Source: Candidatus Babelota bacterium
GTDB taxonomy: Bacteria; Babelota; Babeliae; Babelales; JAUPTZ01
DNA length: 64,000 bases
Assembly (NCBI GenBank): GCA_030917815.1
Contig: JAUPTZ010000001.1
Location: forward strand, 2,102 to 66,101
Reading direction: 5' to 3'
In this document: positions 311 to 10,400 of the stretch, piece after piece
Position numbering within the stretch: the first letter of the stretch is position 1
Layout of the letters: every line of letters starts with the position of its first letter
Program-made: the position numbers and the translations under genes
The notes under the pieces: model-generated
The model's input: only the letters and a program-made list of their open reading frames with translations
Database searches by the model: none
What the model was told of the DNA's origin: nothing

Positions 311-3300
311 TTAGGCGGCGATGGCCGCTTGAGGGGATTTTGGAGTGTCTGCAGGAGTGTTAGATGAAGGGGCATCATCGCTAAAAATAGCGGTAACATC
401 GGCAACCACTTGTTGATCATCGCTCAGTGGGGCATCGTTTGCGGTTGGGGGTGCCGTTTTTATTGTGCTGCTTGGTGTGGCTACCGTCACAAAATCACCC
501 GGGTTAAGTGATTTTAAGAAATCGGCAGATGATTCTGGTACTGGTCGTTTGGCTTCTGCGGCAGGGGCTGCTGCGGTGGTGCTTGGTACTGCAACACCGG
601 TTGATGCGGTGGTGGCCACCGCTTCTTCAGGAGTAGCTTTCATCAAAGCGGCAATCGTCGGCGGTAGATAGCGTGGATCTGATGGGTCGGTTACCGGAGG
701 TTCTTCTTTTGGCGCCGTTGCTATTTGTATGCCGGCTACTTTTTTATTTGCTTTTGGACTGGTAATGGCTTGTGCATCAATAACTGTAATGTTTTCGTAC
801 AATACATTAGTACTACCGCTGCTTAACGCAAAGTACGCGACAGTGTCTGGTGAGTCCGGCTTTGGATTATTCCAAGAGAAGAGCTCTTTGCTGTGAGGGT
901 CGCCGGTACCAACGCTGATCGTGTTGTTTTGGTAGGTAATCCAGAGTGATTTGGTTATTGGTTTGACCGTTACATCAAATTTTCCTGCAACCGTATCTTT
1001 ATCCATGATGACCGACTTGGTATTTTTCCATCCACCAAGGATAACGGCGTAGCGTGGCATCATGCTTGGTATATTGTTGAGGCCAATGTAGACCTCACCG
1101 TTTGATGCGGTGACGTCACAGGTGAGTGTTTGCCCCATTTTGAGTTTCCAGTGTGGATTCCAGGTAAAAACTCCTTGTTTATTATAAGAGTTGTAGATCG
1201 AATTAACTGGCCATGAAATACCTTTGACTGAGGCCATTTGTTCTACGGTAATCATTTGATCGTTAGCGGCCAGTGCATAGTAGATGATTCCTCTATCGGC
1301 CTCAATCGTATCATCATGCCAGAAGAGGAGGATGTTGGTCCCCGGTTTGTCTCCCAGACCAACGCAGACGCTGCCGTGGTCATAAAGCACCCAATAAAAA
1401 GCCGGAACATATTGATTTTTGATAACTGCATTGGCGCTATCAATTGCGGCAACTACGCTTCCATTTGACTTGATAACCGTACGGCTATTTTTATCGGCAC
1501 CGATAACGACTTCGTAGAGTGGTGTGCCTCCGGTACTATTATGCAGCCCTATGCAGAGGTCATTAGCGCCTCGAGCTTTGAGAACGATGCCTCCAAAATC
1601 GGACTGAAGGAGTCGCCATGTTTGGTCAAACTTATATTTTCCTCGGTTGGCCGGTATAACGTACTGATCTACTTTTTCTTGTTTGGCAACCGGCAGGTTC
1701 TGTATGTTGCTGTAGCGTACGTTGCTGGCATCGCTGCTGAAACTAAAATAGGTCGCCTCACTGCTCATGCTATCTTTCCAGTCAAGGAAGGTTTTTACAC
1801 CCGGTTTGTTGCCGGCGCCAACGCTGATATGATCTTCATTGAAAATTACCCAGTACGTGCTTGCATGACTAGGAACGCTGACAACGCCTCGTGCATCGGT
1901 AATCGATTCAACAATATTCCCTTGTTTTTTTATCTGTGCGCCGGTGTTTTTATTGGCACCAATAATTACTTCAAACAACGGGTTTGCCAGTGTTGCAAGT
2001 TTGTTGTCGAGTCCAAAGTAGTAAGGCCCGTCTCCTTGGACATCAAAGACAATGCTGCCTGCACTGTTAGCGCTCAACTTCCATTTATCTGAGAAGGTGT
2101 AGGTGCCTTTACGCATATTGGCCGAAAAACTGGTATTTCTTTTAAGTACACTGGTTGAAGATCTTTGGCTTTCAATAGTGCGATACGTTGCTTGGCCGGT
2201 ACTGCTGCTTACCGAAAAGCGTTGCATGATATCAACCACATTAATATTTTGGTAATCGGCTAAGAGCGAGTCATTATTTTGGGTTGTTCCTTGACCCACT
2301 GCAATGTACCCTTTATCAAAAACAATCCAGAATGCTTGAAAATCTTCTTTACTTACGAGTGGTTGGCTGCCGAGTTCACTCGTCGCTACGAGGACGCCAT
2401 TTTGTGTGATGGTGCAATTTTTGCCAATTTTAATGACATAGGTCGGTTCTGCTTTAGTGCCGGTAAGGCCGATAACTGCTTCGCTGTCGGTTTTTACTTC
2501 AAAGGTTATGAGGCCTTGTTCCGGCTTTGCCAGGGCCCATGGCGATAACCAATTAAACACTCCTTTTTCTTGGCACGCGCTATACGTCTGGTAAGCCGGC
2601 ATTGCATTGCCGGGGAGTTGGGTGGTGTCTTGGTAGGTTGCATCGCCGTTGGCGCTTGCTAAGGCAAAATGGGTAATCTCTTTGGCCGGCTCTCGGTCAA
2701 GCCATTCCAGGACCGTATTTTTATGAGGATCGCTATTACGCCCCACGGTGAGATGTCCTTTATGGTAGCTAATCCAAAATCCATAAAAATTGTCACCGTC
2801 TGGCAACAATGCATCGCTATCGGTGCTTCGTGCTACGACAGTCTTGTTTTTGCGCACAGTTGCTTCTTTACCGTTTATAAATACTTCGTATACGGCACCG
2901 CTTTTTTGGTTGCCAATGCCTATACACAGAGTGCCTGATGAGCGTGCATTCAAAGTCATGATACCTGCGTCTGGTTTATGAAGTTTCCAGGCCTCTTCCC
3001 AGACGTAAGTAGCGGTTGGTTGCGGGGTATGAGTGGTATAGGCTTCTGCAAGCAATGCATCACCATATTCGGTAACAATGATCGGATCTTTGGGATCAAG
3101 AGCGGCAATTTTTTTGCAATATAAGGAAGCTTGCGTTTGATTGCCTATAGCAAATGAGGTGAATGCCGGTTTCGCCGGCAGTGTTGTCTGCCCAATAATA
3201 TCTTTTTGCGTGACCGGGCCATGGCCATAGGCGAGCGCGCCAGTGGCTTTATTGTAATGTACCCAATAGGGATAAAAATTAAAGGGATCGGTTATGTAGG

Positions 3301-5497
3301 TTGCTTTGTTTTCGGTGGTAACGAGGATAGCTCCTTTGTCGTCGGCTACGGTAGTTTTTGTACCGCCTGCATCGCCAACGACCAGCGTGTAGATCTCTTT
3401 TGCATCGGTCTGTAGGCCAACGCTGAAGCCGAATTGAGTTTTTGCCGCAAAGATGAGAAGCAGGTCATCGGTATTGGGGAGAGTCCAGCTGCTGCGCCAT
3501 GTCAGTGGTGTTTGTGGCCCGGCCGTAAATTGAGTGCCACGGCGTAATGGTTTATCGAGAGGAAGAGCTGCAATCGAATTAAATTCAACATGATCGGTGT
3601 TATTAGTAAAGCAGAAATGGGTGAGTGGTTGTTTATCGGTTGGTGTTTCAAGAATAACATCGTTGCCGGGAGTGGTACCGGTGCCCAACATGCAGTAACC
3701 GTCTTCATCATAGGCAAACCAGTAGGGGGTATAGCTACTTTTAGCGGCGATTATTGCTTCGGTATCGGTAGTTTCAGAAATAACTTTTTTGGTGTGATCA
3801 CTGAGTGTTGTTTTTGTGTTTTTCTCGGCACCAATAGTGCAGAGCAATGTATACGAGTTGTCGGTTGAGGTGCCATTTGTGTGTAAAGCAAGGCACATGT
3901 CACTCGCTCCTTTTCCATGCCACGTTACAATGCCTTTTCCGGCGGTTGGGAGTGCCCATGTTTCATTCCATGTGCATGCAAAATGACGATTAACCGCACT
4001 GGCCATAGTGCCGATTGGGCAGGCGACAGCCGGCTGTATAACGATATCGCGAATTTCTACCGGATTATCCCAGCTACTGAACGAAACATATTGGATAGGG
4101 CATCCACCACCGCCTTCGGTTGGTTTTTTTGCCGGATCGATTGGCGTTGCCGGCGTGTCATGATGCTCGGCGGGAGCTGCAGAATGGGCCGGTGCAGTGG
4201 ATGAAGGTGGCGCTTCGGCCAGTATGTTGACGATAACCGATGGGGCCATTGTTGCCGGGTCTGCATACATTTCACTGATAATATTTTTTGATGGGTTCGT
4301 GCCGCTACCGATTACAAAATGACCGTTGTTGAACGTTGCCCAGTACGGATGATACGTTTTATTGCTGCTGTCTGAAAGGGTTGCATCAGGGTCTTGTGAG
4401 ATGGCAAGATAGTTGTAGGTTTTACCATCGGGCGCGCTCGTAGCCATTGTTGCTTTGCTATTGCCTTCAGCGCCAATGGCTGCGAGATATCGCGCAAAAG
4501 TAGCATGGGGATTATCACTTAAGCCAATGGCAATGTGTTGCGATGCTTTTGCGGTAAAGGTTATGGTACCGTTGTTAAGTGCCGGTAATTTGAGTGGCCA
4601 TGAGAATTGGTTATAGGCATTGTATGAGCTGTATTGTGAACCAAATGCTTGAGTGCTTGGCGGACCGGTATGAATGTTTACAAAAGCGAGTTGATTGTCT
4701 TGTGAAGAGAACGAGAAATATTGAATTTTTTCGGGCAAATTAGGAACATTCCAATCAAACAGAAGTTCTTTGCCCGGTGTTGCGCCACGGCCAACCGAAA
4801 CATATCCCTTGTTAAAACTTGCCCAATAGGTTTGAAAGCCACCGTCTTTTTTTTGTAGTACGAGTCCGTTCGGATCGCCACTGGAGAAGAGTACTACGTT
4901 ATTTTGATCACGGATGACGTTAATCGAATTTTGCTTTGTGCCCAGTAAAATATCAAAATCTTTGTTATGTACCTGTTCTTTTTCATGTACTTCATGATGG
5001 AACGCGATATGTATTTCCCGATCGCCGGCAACATCAAAGATAACGCTGCCACTATCGGCTTCAGGAAGCTTCCATTTTTCGATCCAGCGAAACGTATTTT
5101 TCATGTTATTAACGGTGTACGATACCGGATCTTTTTCATCTACAATGCTGGCCGTTTCATCCGGGGTAAGGAAATCAATCGTCCCCATGCTTTTTATGTC
5201 TTCGGCGGTGAAGGGGAACTTTTGGCGCATTGCGGCTAGGCGTTGTGCGTTCTCGGCCTGGATTTTTTTCAGTGCATCATCACGATCCCGCAATTGTTTT
5301 TTGATGCCGGTTTGTTCTACTACGGTGGTATTTTTTTTGACTTCTAACGCGGTGAGATCGGATAAGAACGCTTTGCGGTGTTCTGCGATTTTTGCAAAGA
5401 TATCATCTTTAGATCCATGTGACAGCGGGTTGAAAATATCTGCGATCATGTTGCCAAAGCTTGCAAGCGTTCTCTCCGGATGAGTAAGGTCAAGCAC
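311..5497 (-). CDS. giant (1728 aa) repeat protein with nine tandem FAMeT-like (Methyltransf_FA-type) beta modules, a helical N-terminus and a P/A/T/S-rich tail
   Basis: 5187-nt ORF. Nine ~150-aa modules each carry IGxxKN(T/S)xxxI, (Y/F)W(V/I)x(F/Y)xxGx(I/V)xVGxG..PG and YF(S/A)(F/L)SS-type motifs. Examples are YEVVIGADKNSRTVIK...FYWVLYDHGSVCVGLGDKPG and AVILGGWKNTKSVIM...SLWITYQNNTISVGTGDP. The listed GTG start has no SD, and the frame stays open upstream to the stop of the preceding gene. Confidence 0.9.
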   Translation of the reverse strand: MLDLTHPERTLASFGNMIADIFNPLSHGSKDDIFAKIAEHRKAFLSDLTALEVKKNTTVVEQTGIKKQLRDRDDALKKIQAENAQRLAAMRQKFPFTAEDIKSMGTIDFLTPDETASIVDEKDPVSYTVNNMKNTFRWIEKWKLPEADSGSVIFDVAGDREIHIAFHHEVHEKEQVHNKDFDILLGTKQNSINVIRDQNNVVLFSSGDPNGLVLQKKDGGFQTYWASFNKGYVSVGRGATPGKELLFDWNVPNLPEKIQYFSFSSQDNQLAFVNIHTGPPSTQAFGSQYSSYNAYNQFSWPLKLPALNNGTITFTAKASQHIAIGLSDNPHATFARYLAAIGAEGNSKATMATSAPDGKTYNYLAISQDPDATLSDSSNKTYHPYWATFNNGHFVIGSGTNPSKNIISEMYADPATMAPSVIVNILAEAPPSSTAPAHSAAPAEHHDTPATPIDPAKKPTEGGGGCPIQYVSFSSWDNPVEIRDIVIQPAVACPIGTMASAVNRHFACTWNETWALPTAGKGIVTWHGKGASDMCLALHTNGTSTDNSYTLLCTIGAEKNTKTTLSDHTKKVISETTDTEAIIAAKSSYTPYWFAYDEDGYCMLGTGTTPGNDVILETPTDKQPLTHFCFTNNTDHVEFNSIAALPLDKPLRRGTQFTAGPQTPLTWRSSWTLPNTDDLLLIFAAKTQFGFSVGLQTDAKEIYTLVVGDAGGTKTTVADDKGAILVTTENKATYITDPFNFYPYWVHYNKATGALAYGHGPVTQKDIIGQTTLPAKPAFTSFAIGNQTQASLYCKKIAALDPKDPIIVTEYGDALLAEAYTTHTPQPTATYVWEEAWKLHKPDAGIMTLNARSSGTLCIGIGNQKSGAVYEVFINGKEATVRKNKTVVARSTDSDALLPDGDNFYGFWISYHKGHLTVGRNSDPHKNTVLEWLDREPAKEITHFALASANGDATYQDTTQLPGNAMPAYQTYSACQEKGVFNWLSPWALAKPEQGLITFEVKTDSEAVIGLTGTKAEPTYVIKIGKNCTITQNGVLVATSELGSQPLVSKEDFQAFWIVFDKGYIAVGQGTTQNNDSLLADYQNINVVDIMQRFSVSSSTGQATYRTIESQRSSTSVLKRNTSFSANMRKGTYTFSDKWKLSANSAGSIVFDVQGDGPYYFGLDNKLATLANPLFEVIIGANKNTGAQIKKQGNIVESITDARGVVSVPSHASTYWVIFNEDHISVGAGNKPGVKTFLDWKDSMSSEATYFSFSSDASNVRYSNIQNLPVAKQEKVDQYVIPANRGKYKFDQTWRLLQSDFGGIVLKARGANDLCIGLHNSTGGTPLYEVVIGADKNSRTVIKSNGSVVAAIDSANAVIKNQYVPAFYWVLYDHGSVCVGLGDKPGTNILLFWHDDTIEADRGIIYYALAANDQMITVEQMASVKGISWPVNSIYNSYNKQGVFTWNPHWKLKMGQTLTCDVTASNGEVYIGLNNIPSMMPRYAVILGGWKNTKSVIMDKDTVAGKFDVTVKPITKSLWITYQNNTISVGTGDPHSKELFSWNNPKPDSPDTVAYFALSSGSTNVLYENITVIDAQAITSPKANKKVAGIQIATAPKEEPPVTDPSDPRYLPPTIAALMKATPEEAVATTASTGVAVPSTTAAAPAAEAKRPVPESSADFLKSLNPGDFVTVATPSSTIKTAPPTANDAPLSDDQQVVADVTAIFSDDAPSSNTPADTPKSPQAAIAA

Positions 5498-5722
5498 CAG
5501 CTTTAAATTTTTCTTTACGCCAAACAGGTGGATCAGTAGAAAGAGGTCAAGTGATCCTTGTACGACATTTTTTATCGAACATCTGAATGCTGCACCATCA
5601 ATTCTAAAAACTTCAAAAGCTGCGGTGATGATACCTTTGACCGCAATGGTCAGTCCTTTGGTTATTTCTTCGTTAGCTTTAAATGCGGCCCATGCAGTAA
5701 TTAAGGTTCCTTGCGCGACGTA

Positions 5723-7414
5723 TTATGAAAGATTTGTTGTATTGAGTGCTAGACTGAATGCTAATACCTCGGCTAACTCTTCGATGGTCAGGGGATTTGC
5801 TGCTACCAAAGCGGCTTCAAGGCCGACGTATGATGCTTTGAGCGCTACTTCTCCGGCTGCATAGGAGAGTGCGTAGGTGACTGTTAATATTTCTGAAAGT
5901 GGTAAAACCAACGCTTTGACCGTTTCAAGCACGCCGATGGCAACACCGCGTGCCGTTTCGACTGCCGCTACGCGTACACTCCAATACGTAAGCTCAGCAA
6001 CCTTCCAAAACTCGTACCATTTCATGCCACGAGCAACGCGCTTAAGGCTCGCGATAGCATGATGTACTTCGGAATTAAGTGAGTTTACTTTGGTAACAGC
6101 GGCCGCAATTTTCTTTCTGCCCTCAAGCATTTTTTTTCGAGCGGCGAGAATTTTTCCCAATTCGTGGCCAAGATTTCTATCGGCTTCTTCTACCGCCTTT
6201 ACCGCCGAGTCAATTCCTTTTTGTGCGCCATTCATTGCGGCAAAATAAGCGGCTTGTGCGTGCTTAAGTTTTGCACTGAGATTGCTAATGTCGTGTTTAA
6301 GTCCATCAACTTTTTTGCGTGCATTCTCAATTCCTTTCTCAGCTTTTTTATACACATTGACTAATGCATCACCAACTTTGGTTACGGCCGCCTTTGCTTC
6401 TTTTTCTATGAACCCAATGAAGTTATTTTCTACGGCTCCTTCTAGAAAAAAATCACCGTCGTTGAGTTTAAATTCGGCAAGAAAGGTGGTGGAAAACATG
6501 CCAAACAAATTGGCGTAAGTCATTAAGTGAATGGTCTCTGAGGCAATAATAAGATCGATTTCTGCCATTGCACCAAAAAGGTCAACCAATCCGCTTAGGG
6601 TCACTTTTTGCACCTTCTTATCAAGCCGTATTTCGGCGAGTACGCCATCGTCGGCAGTTCCATACTTACCATCAGGCCCAACGCCGGTGATTTTTATAAG
6701 ATTGGCAACGTTGATCTCTTTCATATAGGCCTGTAGGAGTAATCCCTCGGTATTCACGGCGAATGTGGCGCGAAGATATGCGCCCCAACCGAGCGACATT
6801 TTTGCGGTCATGCCAAAACCGTTTTTTGAAATATCTACACCGGCCTCTTTGAGTCCGGTTAAATTATAGGCAAACAAATCGGTATCTTTTTTTACAGCAG
6901 TTGTTTTTTCGGTTTCATTTTTTTGTGCAGCGGCAAGAATTGTTTTCTTTTCCGCTTTGGCAGCCTCTACTTTAGCCGCACTTTCCTCGGCAGTTATTGG
7001 CGCCGGCCCTGTGTCCGGTTCAGGTGCCGGTAATGCCACTGCCGGTACGATTGCATTATCCGATTCGCTCGGATCAAATGCAGCTACGTTATCGGTGTGT
7101 GCAGTAGCCATATACGACACCGGCTTTTCATTTGGATCGGTACCATCAACCATCGCCATTTCGGCCTGAGCATCGGATGGTGGATTGGTGCCATCGCTAG
7201 TGTCTGCATTATCGGTGGCGACTTTTTCAGTAGCCGGCTCGGCCGATTTTGGTGCGGCATCGGTGGTCGATGCTGGAGTCACTGGTGCAACGGCCGGGGC
7301 CGGAGTGGTTGTTGGATGCGTGGTAGCGAAGAGGAGAAGGGACAGGCAGGTGAATACTACGATGATTGTGCGAGGAGCACCGTTGTTCGGCGATCCGGTT
7401 GGAGTATGATTCAT
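5723..7414 (-). CDS. secreted or membrane-anchored hypothetical protein (563 aa) with a GK-YGTADDG domain and a long helical C-terminal half
   Basis: ATG at 7414 is preceded by AAGGA; the ORF-track start at 7438 would overlap the upstream gene by 20 nt. It has a hydrophobic anchor IIVVFTCLSLLLFATT and a P/A/T-rich spacer. The segment KITGVGPDGKYGTADDGVLAEIRL...LFGAMAEIDL is paralogous to the C-terminus of the 7419..10637 protein. The C-terminal half is coiled-coil and hydrophobic helical. Confidence 0.8.
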   Translation of the reverse strand: MNHTPTGSPNNGAPRTIIVVFTCLSLLLFATTHPTTTPAPAVAPVTPASTTDAAPKSAEPATEKVATDNADTSDGTNPPSDAQAEMAMVDGTDPNEKPVSYMATAHTDNVAAFDPSESDNAIVPAVALPAPEPDTGPAPITAEESAAKVEAAKAEKKTILAAAQKNETEKTTAVKKDTDLFAYNLTGLKEAGVDISKNGFGMTAKMSLGWGAYLRATFAVNTEGLLLQAYMKEINVANLIKITGVGPDGKYGTADDGVLAEIRLDKKVQKVTLSGLVDLFGAMAEIDLIIASETIHLMTYANLFGMFSTTFLAEFKLNDGDFFLEGAVENNFIGFIEKEAKAAVTKVGDALVNVYKKAEKGIENARKKVDGLKHDISNLSAKLKHAQAAYFAAMNGAQKGIDSAVKAVEEADRNLGHELGKILAARKKMLEGRKKIAAAVTKVNSLNSEVHHAIASLKRVARGMKWYEFWKVAELTYWSVRVAAVETARGVAIGVLETVKALVLPLSEILTVTYALSYAAGEVALKASYVGLEAALVAANPLTIEELAEVLAFSLALNTTNLS

Positions 7415-7418
7415 GGTG

Positions 7419-10400
7419 TTATCCTTGTGCGCGAACATAAAACTCTACGTCGGTAAGACCAAATTTAGGAATAAGGTCGCTTGGTATATGACAAATATCG
7501 GCAATGTCGTGGAGCGTGAGCGCATCGTATTTGCCGGCAAAACTACAGCCGAGCGTATTGATATCGCCAAATAACATTGCTTGTGCCGACTTACCTAATT
7601 TAATGGTACCATTGGCGCGAAAACCAAGGCGCCATCCTTTATGGTACGTTTCGCCAACGATGTGTGCATCAAGAATGCCAAGAAGCTTCATAAGCATCTT
7701 AAAGCGAAGATGGAGGAGGCCGATATCAATTTCTATTTCGGCCGATGAGCCAAAAAGTTCGGCCATTGCAGAAACAAAAATGCGTTGTTCAGTCAGTGAT
7801 AATGCGGCATAAAAAATAGGGCCATCGTCGGCTGTGTTGTATTTTCTATCTTTTCCTTTGCCGGTAATTTTTAGCGGACCAAGATTGAATTTTGGCATCA
7901 TCGCATACAGCTTAAACCCGCCCATGATATCGAGGTTAAATCCTGCTTCAAGTTTGGTATTGATGACATACGGAATTTTAAGTACCAGTTTCCCTGAGGC
8001 GCTTATACCAGGGTCAAAATAGATTTGTCCGATTTGCCCACCGATTGGCGCGAACTTAAATTTTACATCATAGAGTGATATGTCAATTGCCTTGATGATA
8101 TCCAATGGGCCTAGATCAAGACCCATTTTGCGGATTAATGCAGGCAATACGAAGAGGGGCCATTCATTGATTTCAGCGAGGAGTAGAATACTGTTAGGTG
8201 CTATTTTAACCGCGGCACGCGCGATAATATCGCCGAGTTGGATAGCACCGGTGATGCCGGCACCAACCGGTGGAATGAGCGGTGCATAGGGTAGTGACAT
8301 TTCTACGGCAACATCGCTTACGGTAATGCCCGGAATGCTGAACGGGTGCCGCCAGACTCCTTGCATTGTTCCTGCTATGGTAAAGAATCCAGGGCTGAAC
8401 GCTATGCTCGCCGTGAAAATGAGTGGAGGCTTGCTTCGGTCGGTTATAAAGGCCAAAGAAACCATTATGGTAAGACTGCCGTCACCACTGATTTGAACAA
8501 TGATATTGTGAATGCTCACTCTGCTTGAGAGTTTTATATCAAGTGGTATCGCAATTTGGATGGTATACCAAGGCATTGATTTCAAGATTGTTATGCCGCC
8601 GATTAGCTTCTTTGGCAGAATGGGGAATATTTTGCGAACCGATTTAAAAAGGCCTTGCGACATATCAAGAGCGCCAAACATATTAAGGCCGGCCTGCATC
8701 ATCATGCCTGACTCGGCATCAAGATACGCACTTTTTACAAAACCGAAGGTGATTGTTTCAAAAACAAGCGAATCGCCAATACTGCCTTTAAGAGAGGGGA
8801 ATGAATCGGAAAGACGCCACGCTTTTTGGGTTGAGGCCATGATTCCTTTAGCGGCGCCAAGCAATACTTTTGCCTGTGTTGCAATACCAAAGAGAACGGT
8901 TTCGCCGCCGATAAATGTTTTTTTTGCCGAATCAATACCAAGAGCCGATTTATTTAAGATAAAGTCTTTAATTCCCGGTATTTCGTTGAGGCCGGGAATG
9001 CATTCAAGCGGTTTTATTGGTTTGCCGCCATTAATTTCTCCGGAAAATTGAACCATTCTTGTTTTTCCACCGAGCGCAGCGGCAGCGCCAGGTCCGAGCA
9101 TGCTCATATCCGGTTTTATGAGACGCAGGATTGGTACGATTTGAAGGCCAAACAAATTGAAGGTACTTTTTACCGCGACATTAAGGTTACTCTGCTCTTT
9201 GCCACTTGCATCGACCGACATGCCTTTCTGTGAAGAGAGAACAATATCTGGATTCTTAAATTTTATCGGGCCCCAATCAAATGAGTTTCCTAGGCTGCCG
9301 ATAAGCTCAAATTCACCATACGCTTTTCTGCCATGTACCGGTATATTAATAAGACCAACAACCGGCAGATTGCAAGAAATGATGCCGCCGATACCAATTT
9401 CTGCTTCTACTGCGCTGCTCCCAAGGTTCATTTGAATGTTCGGCTTGTCCAATGCAATATCGGTATCAAGTTGTAATGGTGTTGTCCCTTGTGCTTCAAG
9501 CATAATCGTAACACCACTGAAAATGATGGTAACGTCGGAGCTGCTTAAATGTGTTTTTCCGTAGAGTACAATTTGGTCGAGATTTGCCGTGGCAGTGATA
9601 GTGCTACTAGGAACACCACCAGAGGCGGCAAGTTCTTGTACGGCATTCAGCGGGTTAAGAAATGATATTGAAACGCCTGACAATGTTATGGTTTCGGCCT
9701 GTTTATTCCCTTTTGCTTGCGACACAATACTGGTAAGCGGAACATCTTCATCTATGGCGGCCGTTGCACCACTATTATTTGGTGTTTCAACACCAAAAGT
9801 AAGGGTCGTACCTTTCTTTCCTGGCGTGAACATTGACGATTTTGCGGTGAGTGTTGGGCCGGTAGGGGCAAGGCTCAAAGTAAGCGTGGAGATCGAGATT
9901 GGTTTTCCGGGGAGAATGTCGAAAGTGAACGGTTTTGCGCAGGTTAATTTTAAGCGGAGCTCAGGTGCCTTGTCGTCATATTTTATGACCGATACCGTAG
10001 CTTCGGTGTCCTTTATGGTGCAGGTACCAGAGAGCGAGAGGTGACCGGTTTTGTCCACGTATCCGGCGAGATCTTTAAACGAAAGCAGACCAACGCTGAG
10101 GCTTTTTTTGCCGGCTTTATCAATGATATCTTTGCGGGTAAGGCCGGCAGGAGAAACGGTTTTGTCGGCAATCGATTCCGGAGAAGGACCGAAGTTGAAA
10201 ATCCCAATTATTGGTAGGGAAACATCGGCACCGTCTACGGCGGTGTAGATGCCGGGGCCGGGGTCGTTGTCGCTGTCATCGCTCGATGACTGAGCCTCTT
10301 CTGCATCTGCCGTTTCTGGTGCATCATCCTTAGTGGTTCCAGTTTCGTCAGGGGTGGTCGCATCAGGAGAATCTTTACTCTTTTCGGCCGCATCGAGGAG

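Follow-up and report, generated by a model that had tools for sequence, protein, structure and literature searches.

The minus strand of the window (the whole stretch of DNA analysed, 64 kb) carries between 7414 and 311 what we consider, at a probability of about 0.9, to be one ancestral gene of ~2,367 codons that contains a single premature stop and has lost its function, with no designed split into two genes. A nonsense allele is an ordinary and already known phenomenon, and no special translation mechanism is involved. The original prediction of an ancestral ~2370-aa protein split by a nonsense change or a base-call error is borne out by orthologues that are uninterrupted and that have Tyr or Phe codons where the window has TAA. 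Its further suggestion, readthrough or reinitiation, finds no support as a designed mechanism, given an unconserved stop, a TAA-T context, no detectable structure, and neither a start codon nor an SD at the junction.

Reading frame and domains of the interrupted gene

The whole ancestral gene (311..7414, minus strand) runs from ATG 7414 through 563 codons to 5726, then through the in-frame TAA (5725..5723) and 75 open codons (5722..5498), and continues from GTG 5497 for 1,728 codons and the terminal stop to 311 (563 + 1 + 75 + 1,728 = 2,367 codons). On the minus strand the junction reads ...AAT CTT TCA TAA TAC GTC GCG CAA GGA..., with the TAA appearing as TTA on the plus strand. It is the sole internal stop of the 2,367-codon reading frame; when 7438..311 (minus strand) is translated in this frame, the 2,376 codons include one internal and one terminal stop. 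The ORF list gives two minus-strand entries for this region, 5723..7438 (571 aa from the first ATG) and 311..5497 (1,728 aa from GTG), where a listed downstream ORF begins at the first ATG, GTG, or TTG after the stop, here 5497.

The ORFs 5723..7414 and 311..5497 had been said to lie in one frame, and they do ((5723-311)/3 = 1804). The 225 nt between them are indeed stop-free, and the 75 residues that follow the TAA match the string given with the original prediction exactly. This stretch also holds no ATG, GTG, or TTG, the first canonical start in the ORF list being GTG 5497, and the claim that this GTG has no SD stands as well, the preceding 21 nt (GTAAAGAAAAATTTAAAGCTG) containing no GGAG/AGGA-type motif. 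Such motifs precede several other genes in the window, and the gene's own start, ATG 7414, has an SD-like AAGGA at 7426..7422. At ~46% GC, the stop frequency would be ~0.053, giving 75 open codons a chance probability of ~0.016, or ~0.005 after a factor of 1/3 for the shared frame; a chance origin of the open stretch is irrelevant here, because homology shows the 75 codons to be coding. The TAA at 5723 is the only place in the window at which long open stretches join at one stop without a nearby start. The other same-frame pairs across one stop are adjacent genes with an ATG 13-19 nt downstream, together with one non-gene pair that consists of open stretches on the opposite strand of the giant gene.

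The N-terminal part of 563 codons (5726..7414, minus strand) is a separate protein at NCBI, MDQ5890130.1, named 'Chromosome segregation ATPase-like protein' and derived from a 157-kb contig of a Candidatus Dependentiae MAG. It includes a signal peptide or TM-like hydrophobic segment, a Pro/Thr/Ala-rich low-complexity stretch, and most of a ~460-aa domain, which reads as beta plus long-helix/coiled-coil in the fused translation. A Pfam search with the 563-aa part gave coiled-coil-type matches only, all of them sub-threshold, and the N-terminal domain has no sequence match in the PDB at E <= 1. The AlphaFold2 model of an orthologue (P0002), computed from a 3-sequence alignment, was too poor to use (mean pLDDT 37.7), and its hint of long helices followed by a spacer folded as a beta-hairpin was set aside. 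The C-terminal part (311..5497, minus strand) comprises a linker, at least seven tandem Methyltransf_FA (PF12248) repeats, and a low-complexity C-terminus. The Methyltransf_FA match is strong (E = 9.8e-74; 246.1 bits against a cut-off of 24.2) and falls into 7 stretches; the orthologues P0004 and P0006 likewise match this family. The whole of 7414..311 encodes a giant protein that is predicted to be secreted or located at the cell surface.

The 75 codons between the two ORFs (5498..5722, minus strand) encode the C-terminal end of the conserved N-terminal domain, so that the 225-nt 'intergenic' stretch is coding sequence and not a spacer. They carry the motif FRIDG..F...(11 aa)..G.LDL...(7 aa)..FG.KK.LKL.LD, which in the window takes the form FRIDGAAF...GSLDLFLLIHLFGVKKNLKLVLDLTHPE and matches the final conserved motif of distant homologues; the same closing motif ends P0018, P0031, P0044, and P0068. 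Identity to L005, the closest complete orthologue, is 71% across the 75 codons, the best of the gene, compared with 65% in the N-terminal domain and 59-61% in the repeats. Between the window and L005, these codons also have the lowest pN of the gene (0.167) at a pS near saturation (0.64). The GTG at 5497 aligns as a Val codon within the conserved motif LKL[VT]LD, which is present in all orthologues; the variable residue is Val in the window and in L001, and Thr among L003-L007 (4-5 loci). Because the codon sits inside this motif and is without an SD, GTG 5497 is not a real start.

The ~460-aa domain corresponds to residues ~140-602 of P0002 and aligns in many unrelated large proteins. In many distant homologues it forms the C-terminal end, for example in P0018 (876-1346 of 1,348), P0056 (892-1348 of 1,349), and P0068 (93-505 of 506). 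The stop in the window is equivalent to about residue ~503 of P0002, which cuts off the last ~100 residues of the domain. Since the stop falls ~100 residues inside a ~460-aa domain, the break is not a split at a domain boundary.

Orthologous loci and the ancestral codon

The relatives compared comprise six loci (L001 and L003-L007) and eight distant giant homologues (P0004-P0011), and all 14 are continuous through the position of the window's stop. L003-L006 and L007 were obtained from one genome per species and from JGI metagenomes; L001 comes from ENA, as a metagenome scaffold. When proteins were searched with a query across the junction, P0002 was also retrieved, which has 49% identity and is uninterrupted at the window's stop. 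In each of L003-L007 (5/5), the frame aligned to the fused query has zero stops. Two of these loci hold complete single genes, open for 2,480 codons in L005 and for 2,282 codons in L007, to which the fused translation could be aligned end to end with tblastn (L005: residues 42-2323, 57%; L007: residues 1-2253, 45%).

The upstream neighbour of the interrupted gene (7419..10637, minus strand; 1,072 aa, no Pfam family) was used as the anchor for gene order. In L001, L002, L003, L005, L006, and L007, its homologue (53-66% identity) immediately precedes the giant gene, and the common order is two trigger-factor paralogues, a ~1,050-aa gene, and the giant gene. Because this gene order is conserved, we treat the loci as positional orthologues; the order was confirmed for five of the six, the contig of L004 beginning at the giant gene itself. 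The comparison of orthologous loci proposed with the original prediction gave one gene in every locus, and the pattern that would contradict a broken gene, a conserved stop combined with an RBS-bearing start, was sought in the orthologues and seen in none. The family as a whole consists of ~2,200-2,500-aa Dependentiae proteins and is conserved at the same genomic position across Dependentiae.

The eight distant homologues are 1,329-2,572 aa long and align beyond the junction. They were found with P0002 as the query of a HMMER scan that covered all 1.84 billion cluster representatives, and each represents a different 50%-identity cluster. They are counted as independent because none is >66% identical to any locus already compared. 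A profile search with the junction alignment had found no homologues, its word-based candidate step missing relatives that HMMER found later, and a homologue search with the 75 codons plus the downstream 430 aa, which used the same word-based step, returned nothing.

In the codon alignment, TCA TAA TAC of the window stands against TAC TAC in L003, L004, and L005, TAT TAT in L006 and L007, and TTT TAT in L001. The stop column thus holds Tyr (TAC or TAT) in five loci and Phe (TTT) in one, and TAA is one third-base change away from TAY; S-Y-Y stands at the junction in the three closest giant representatives. The ancestral codon at 5725..5723 was therefore Tyr.

L001, which is 49-53% identical to the window, reads through the position of the window's stop and has a single in-frame TGA of its own 104 codons further on (...AAA TTC ACC TGA GAA CTT...). 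It lies at position 2317 of ERZ19566047 scaffold_7470. The column of this TGA is variable, with S, N, P, or G in the other orthologues and G in P0004, the closest intact relative; elsewhere the L001 frame stays open, both before and after a gap in the scaffold. Two premature stops within ~105 of ~2,300 codons have a chance probability of ~0.1. A premature stop is thus present in this gene in at least two of the lineages available, and the simplest reading is that so long a gene offers mutation a large target and is lost repeatedly.

Age and authenticity of the stop

We propose that a Tyr codon (TAC or TAT) became TAA by a third-base change at 5723 (minus-strand A, plus-strand T), and that translation would now end after residue 563, within the ~460-aa domain and short of its last ~100 residues. 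The downstream 1,803 codons, which lack their own start codon, ribosome-binding site, and promoter, would therefore remain unmade, apart from a trace by near-cognate readthrough.

Outside the TAA, the gene is undamaged. The 1,803 downstream codons contain no second stop or frameshift, and in a relative-rate test with L007 as the outgroup, the lineage of the window is no more divergent than that of the intact L005, either in the first repeats (identity 0.52 for the window and 0.49 for L005) or in the remaining downstream part (0.44 for both). Downstream dN to L007 is 0.500 for the window and 0.526 for L005, so that neither excess divergence nor relaxed constraint is detectable downstream of the TAA in the window lineage relative to L005. 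Dating of the TAA by dN/dS is impossible because synonymous sites are saturated even in comparison with the closest orthologue (pS 0.64-0.80). We assumed that some 4-5% of random substitutions produce a stop and that indels arise at about one-tenth of the substitution rate; by a rough estimate with these rates, neutral sequence of 5.4 kb would be hit by another disabling lesion after ~0.1-0.4% divergence. From the undamaged state of the downstream 5.4 kb it follows that the TAA is either very recent or not real, and we infer a very recent change.

A genuine nonsense allele, very recent or still segregating, is the probable state of the locus, and within the explanation of a single broken gene a young or segregating allele takes up by far the larger share. 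In a host-dependent bacterium, nonsense alleles of a 7-kb gene are not rare, whereas a short-read consensus seldom contains substitution errors, which occur far less often than genuine nonsense alleles of such a gene. The alternative, a consensus or assembly error, is distinctly less likely. In that case the organism would have TAC or TAT at 5725..5723 and would make the full 2,367-aa protein. The TAA is only one base from the orthologous Tyr codon, there is no other damage across 7.1 kb and no sign of relaxed constraint, and the source is a MAG, all of which speaks for an error; the rarity of consensus substitution errors and the position of the TAA outside any homopolymer or repeat count against it.

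Data from a separate assembly bear on both sides of this question. A Logan contig (L008, run SRR24011150), the one found by an exact look-up of the 1,072-aa neighbour, is identical to the window at 5773..11983 in 6,211 of 6,211 bases, which speaks for an accurate consensus next to the TAA. The contig breaks off 48 nt from the TAA and leaves the site uncovered, so that it neither confirms nor contradicts the stop. Its end near 5772 may reflect branching of the read graph or a variant close to the TAA, such as would arise from strain heterogeneity, which is conjecture; a nearby branch of this kind would also be in keeping with an assembly error. Exact look-ups for other assemblies of the same strain across the TAA, with P0001, the 1,728-aa ORF, and its 1,712-aa ATG-start version, returned no match, as did an exact cluster look-up of the 1,728-aa ORF, the query translation of which begins with V and not with M, a possible cause of the miss.

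Translation across the stop and the protein family

We also considered a functional split or recoding, in which the gene would yield the 563-aa protein together with either a full-length readthrough product, through misreading of UAA by tRNA-Tyr or tRNA-Gln, or a C-terminal protein reinitiated at the in-frame ATT 5701. The 1,803 downstream codons are intact and as conserved as in the intact orthologues, L001 has its independent single TGA with an intact ORF downstream, and an SD-like AAGGA (5712..5708) is correctly spaced before the ATT, which begins 6 nt after it. Against this, the stop at the TAA column is absent in all 14 relatives, and the cut falls inside a domain and not between domains. 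The ATT is the sole candidate reinitiation site, and the AAGGA before it is merely the conserved codons for Gln-Gly; no start codon with a ribosome-binding site is present at or near the TAA, the first ATG, GTG, or TTG lying 75 codons downstream in the form of the SD-less GTG 5497, and a reinitiated C-terminal product would have no N-terminal signal sequence. On the minus strand, the 75-codon stretch is also free of sites resembling a promoter or terminator. The stop context, TAA followed by T (TCA TAA TAC), is a strong one; by what is established in E. coli, no other terminator context of bacteria is as efficient. Folding of the 151 nt of RNA around and after the TAA was no better than in shuffled sequences (z = +1.1), an Rfam scan matched only the tRNAs of the window (Lys-CTT, Leu-TAG, and Gln-TTG) and no recoding element, and the window encodes no suppressor tRNA or UUA anticodon. 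Taken together, these features make a functional split or recoding very improbable.

The second interrupted orthologue raises a related possibility, namely that the interruption is recurrent and tolerated or used, and not accidental. We regard this as highly unlikely. If true, it could reflect a giant host-interaction protein that is switched on and off or controlled in dosage, with a truncated N-terminal product, a trace of full-length protein by readthrough, and a downstream part that is still under selection. Both lineages have one stop near the end of the N-terminal domain with >1,600 codons intact downstream, which is the basis for the idea of a tolerated interruption. The intact 1,803 downstream codons of the window are also compatible with a downstream part that is still expressed and selected.

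Reassignment of TAA to an amino acid, which would agree with its alignment to Tyr in the orthologues, can be set aside almost entirely, as 22 of the window's 43 open stretches of >=200 codons end in TAA (with TGA and TAG used as well), only a single TAA in the 64-kb window interrupts a long frame without a nearby start, and no tRNA with a UUA anticodon is encoded there; the genetic code is thus standard, TAA being the commonest terminator in the window.

The interrupted gene resembles known nonsense-disrupted bacterial genes in having a single stop one step from the orthologous sense codon and intact positional orthologues, and in that annotation yields two ORFs with a seemingly open 'intergenic' stretch between them. 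It differs from them only in its size (2,367 codons) and in showing no measurable relaxation. Nonsense-disrupted genes are especially common in host-dependent bacteria and among very long genes. With programmed readthrough, as in the coat-protein extension of phage Q-beta or at the UGA for selenocysteine, the window shares a stop beyond which a long conserved extension continues in frame; unlike those systems, its stop is unconserved, is TAA-T and not a leaky UGA, and is accompanied by no structure or recoding element. Split genes with translational coupling likewise consist of adjacent same-strand ORFs that jointly cover a protein that is fused elsewhere, whereas the junction in the window is without a start or RBS, breaks within a domain, and is unique to the window assembly.

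For annotation, the 563-aa protein and the ORF of 1,728 codons belong together as a single gene, to be flagged as interrupted, or as intact if reads show TAC or TAT at the site. The TAA itself adds no new insight into translation, and the uncharacterised family is the more interesting outcome: it joins a widespread, unannotated ~460-aa domain to an array of Methyltransf_FA, a domain otherwise discussed only in eukaryotes. In the literature searched, the Pfam name Methyltransf_FA occurred only in papers on eukaryotic proteins, and a search on Dependentiae together with farnesoic acid found nothing. With the arthropod proteins that resemble farnesoic acid O-methyltransferase, and with the C-terminal regions of some thioester-containing proteins, the giant protein has PF12248 in common, here in at least seven tandem copies; unlike the eukaryotic proteins, it is bacterial (Dependentiae) and combines many tandem copies with an uncharacterised secreted N-terminal domain. 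The PF12248 match implies no catalytic function. The joining of the ~460-aa domain to a long Methyltransf_FA array makes it plausible that the giant protein is a host-interaction factor. The unannotated ~460-aa domain occurs in about 135 protein clusters.

Domain architecture of the giant protein

The C-terminal part of the giant protein is occupied by tandem Methyltransf_FA (PF12248) repeats (window 311..5100, minus strand), of which there are at least seven copies in this bacterial protein and, judged by their spacing, probably around 10. In the searchable literature, all papers in which the name Methyltransf_FA occurs concern eukaryotic proteins (FAMeT, CPAMD8, thioester-containing proteins, and plant BTB proteins), and this may be a case of a protist parasite that carries a eukaryote-like domain.

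Ahead of the repeats is an N-terminal domain of ~460 aa (window 5126..6870, minus strand), corresponding to residues ~140-602 of P0002, a homologous protein that is continuous across the position of the window's stop. The domain has no Pfam family and no sequence match in the PDB. It comprises long coiled-coil helices, hydrophobic helices, and a beta-rich part in which the motif TG.GPDGKYGT.DDG occurs, and the domain's terminal motif is F.I.G..F...G.LP.L.L...FGK...L...D..P. HMMER searches identified the domain in 135 cluster representatives; among the matches it is frequently C-terminal in other proteins of 1,000-1,900 aa.

Interruptions and linker variation

The giant-gene orthologue in the related locus L001 (ENA ERZ19566047 scaffold_7470) contains a single in-frame TGA (L001:2317-2319; equivalent to approximately window 5410), 104 codons downstream of the position of the window's TAA. 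Elsewhere, the L001 gene has an open frame both before and after a scaffold gap of 10 N, and the column that holds the TGA is variable among orthologues (S/N/P/G). The TGA is an interruption of the giant gene that is independent of the window's TAA. Immediately ahead of the same column, the L003/L005 clade of related loci has a 22-residue insertion (NFMAGITAAGPSLQ[ED]RIQQNRAS; equivalent to approximately window 5420); thus, the linker between the N-terminal domain and the repeats is length-variable.

Near the window's own TAA (5725..5723), a Logan contig from an independent k-mer assembly of public run SRR24011150 is a perfect match to window 5773..11983, ending 48 nt upstream of the TAA; this end may reflect a variant or a coverage break near 5772.

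Upstream genes

The direct upstream neighbor, a 1,072-aa gene (window 7419..10637, minus strand) whose product had no match in a Pfam search, adjoins the giant gene in six of the seven related loci, these being all of those with a contig that reaches upstream of the giant gene. A segment of ~100 aa in this product (window 7650..7952, minus strand) resembles residues 222-322 of the giant protein (34% identity, E = 2.8e-8), and the two proteins are therefore partly paralogous. Further upstream, adjacent genes encode trigger-factor-like proteins of 428 aa (window 10743..12029) and 437 aa (window 12176..13489), both on the minus strand, with ~38-42% mutual identity. Both genes are retained in unchanged order in the related loci L002 and L007, so trigger factor is tandemly duplicated in this lineage. 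The trigger factor, 1,072-aa, and giant genes also occur in L005 (CAYSBJ010000002.1, a 392,730-bp contig) in the same order as in the Dependentiae and Babeliales MAGs, with 57-83% identity; the label of this record, "uncultured Pseudomonadota bacterium," is probably wrong.
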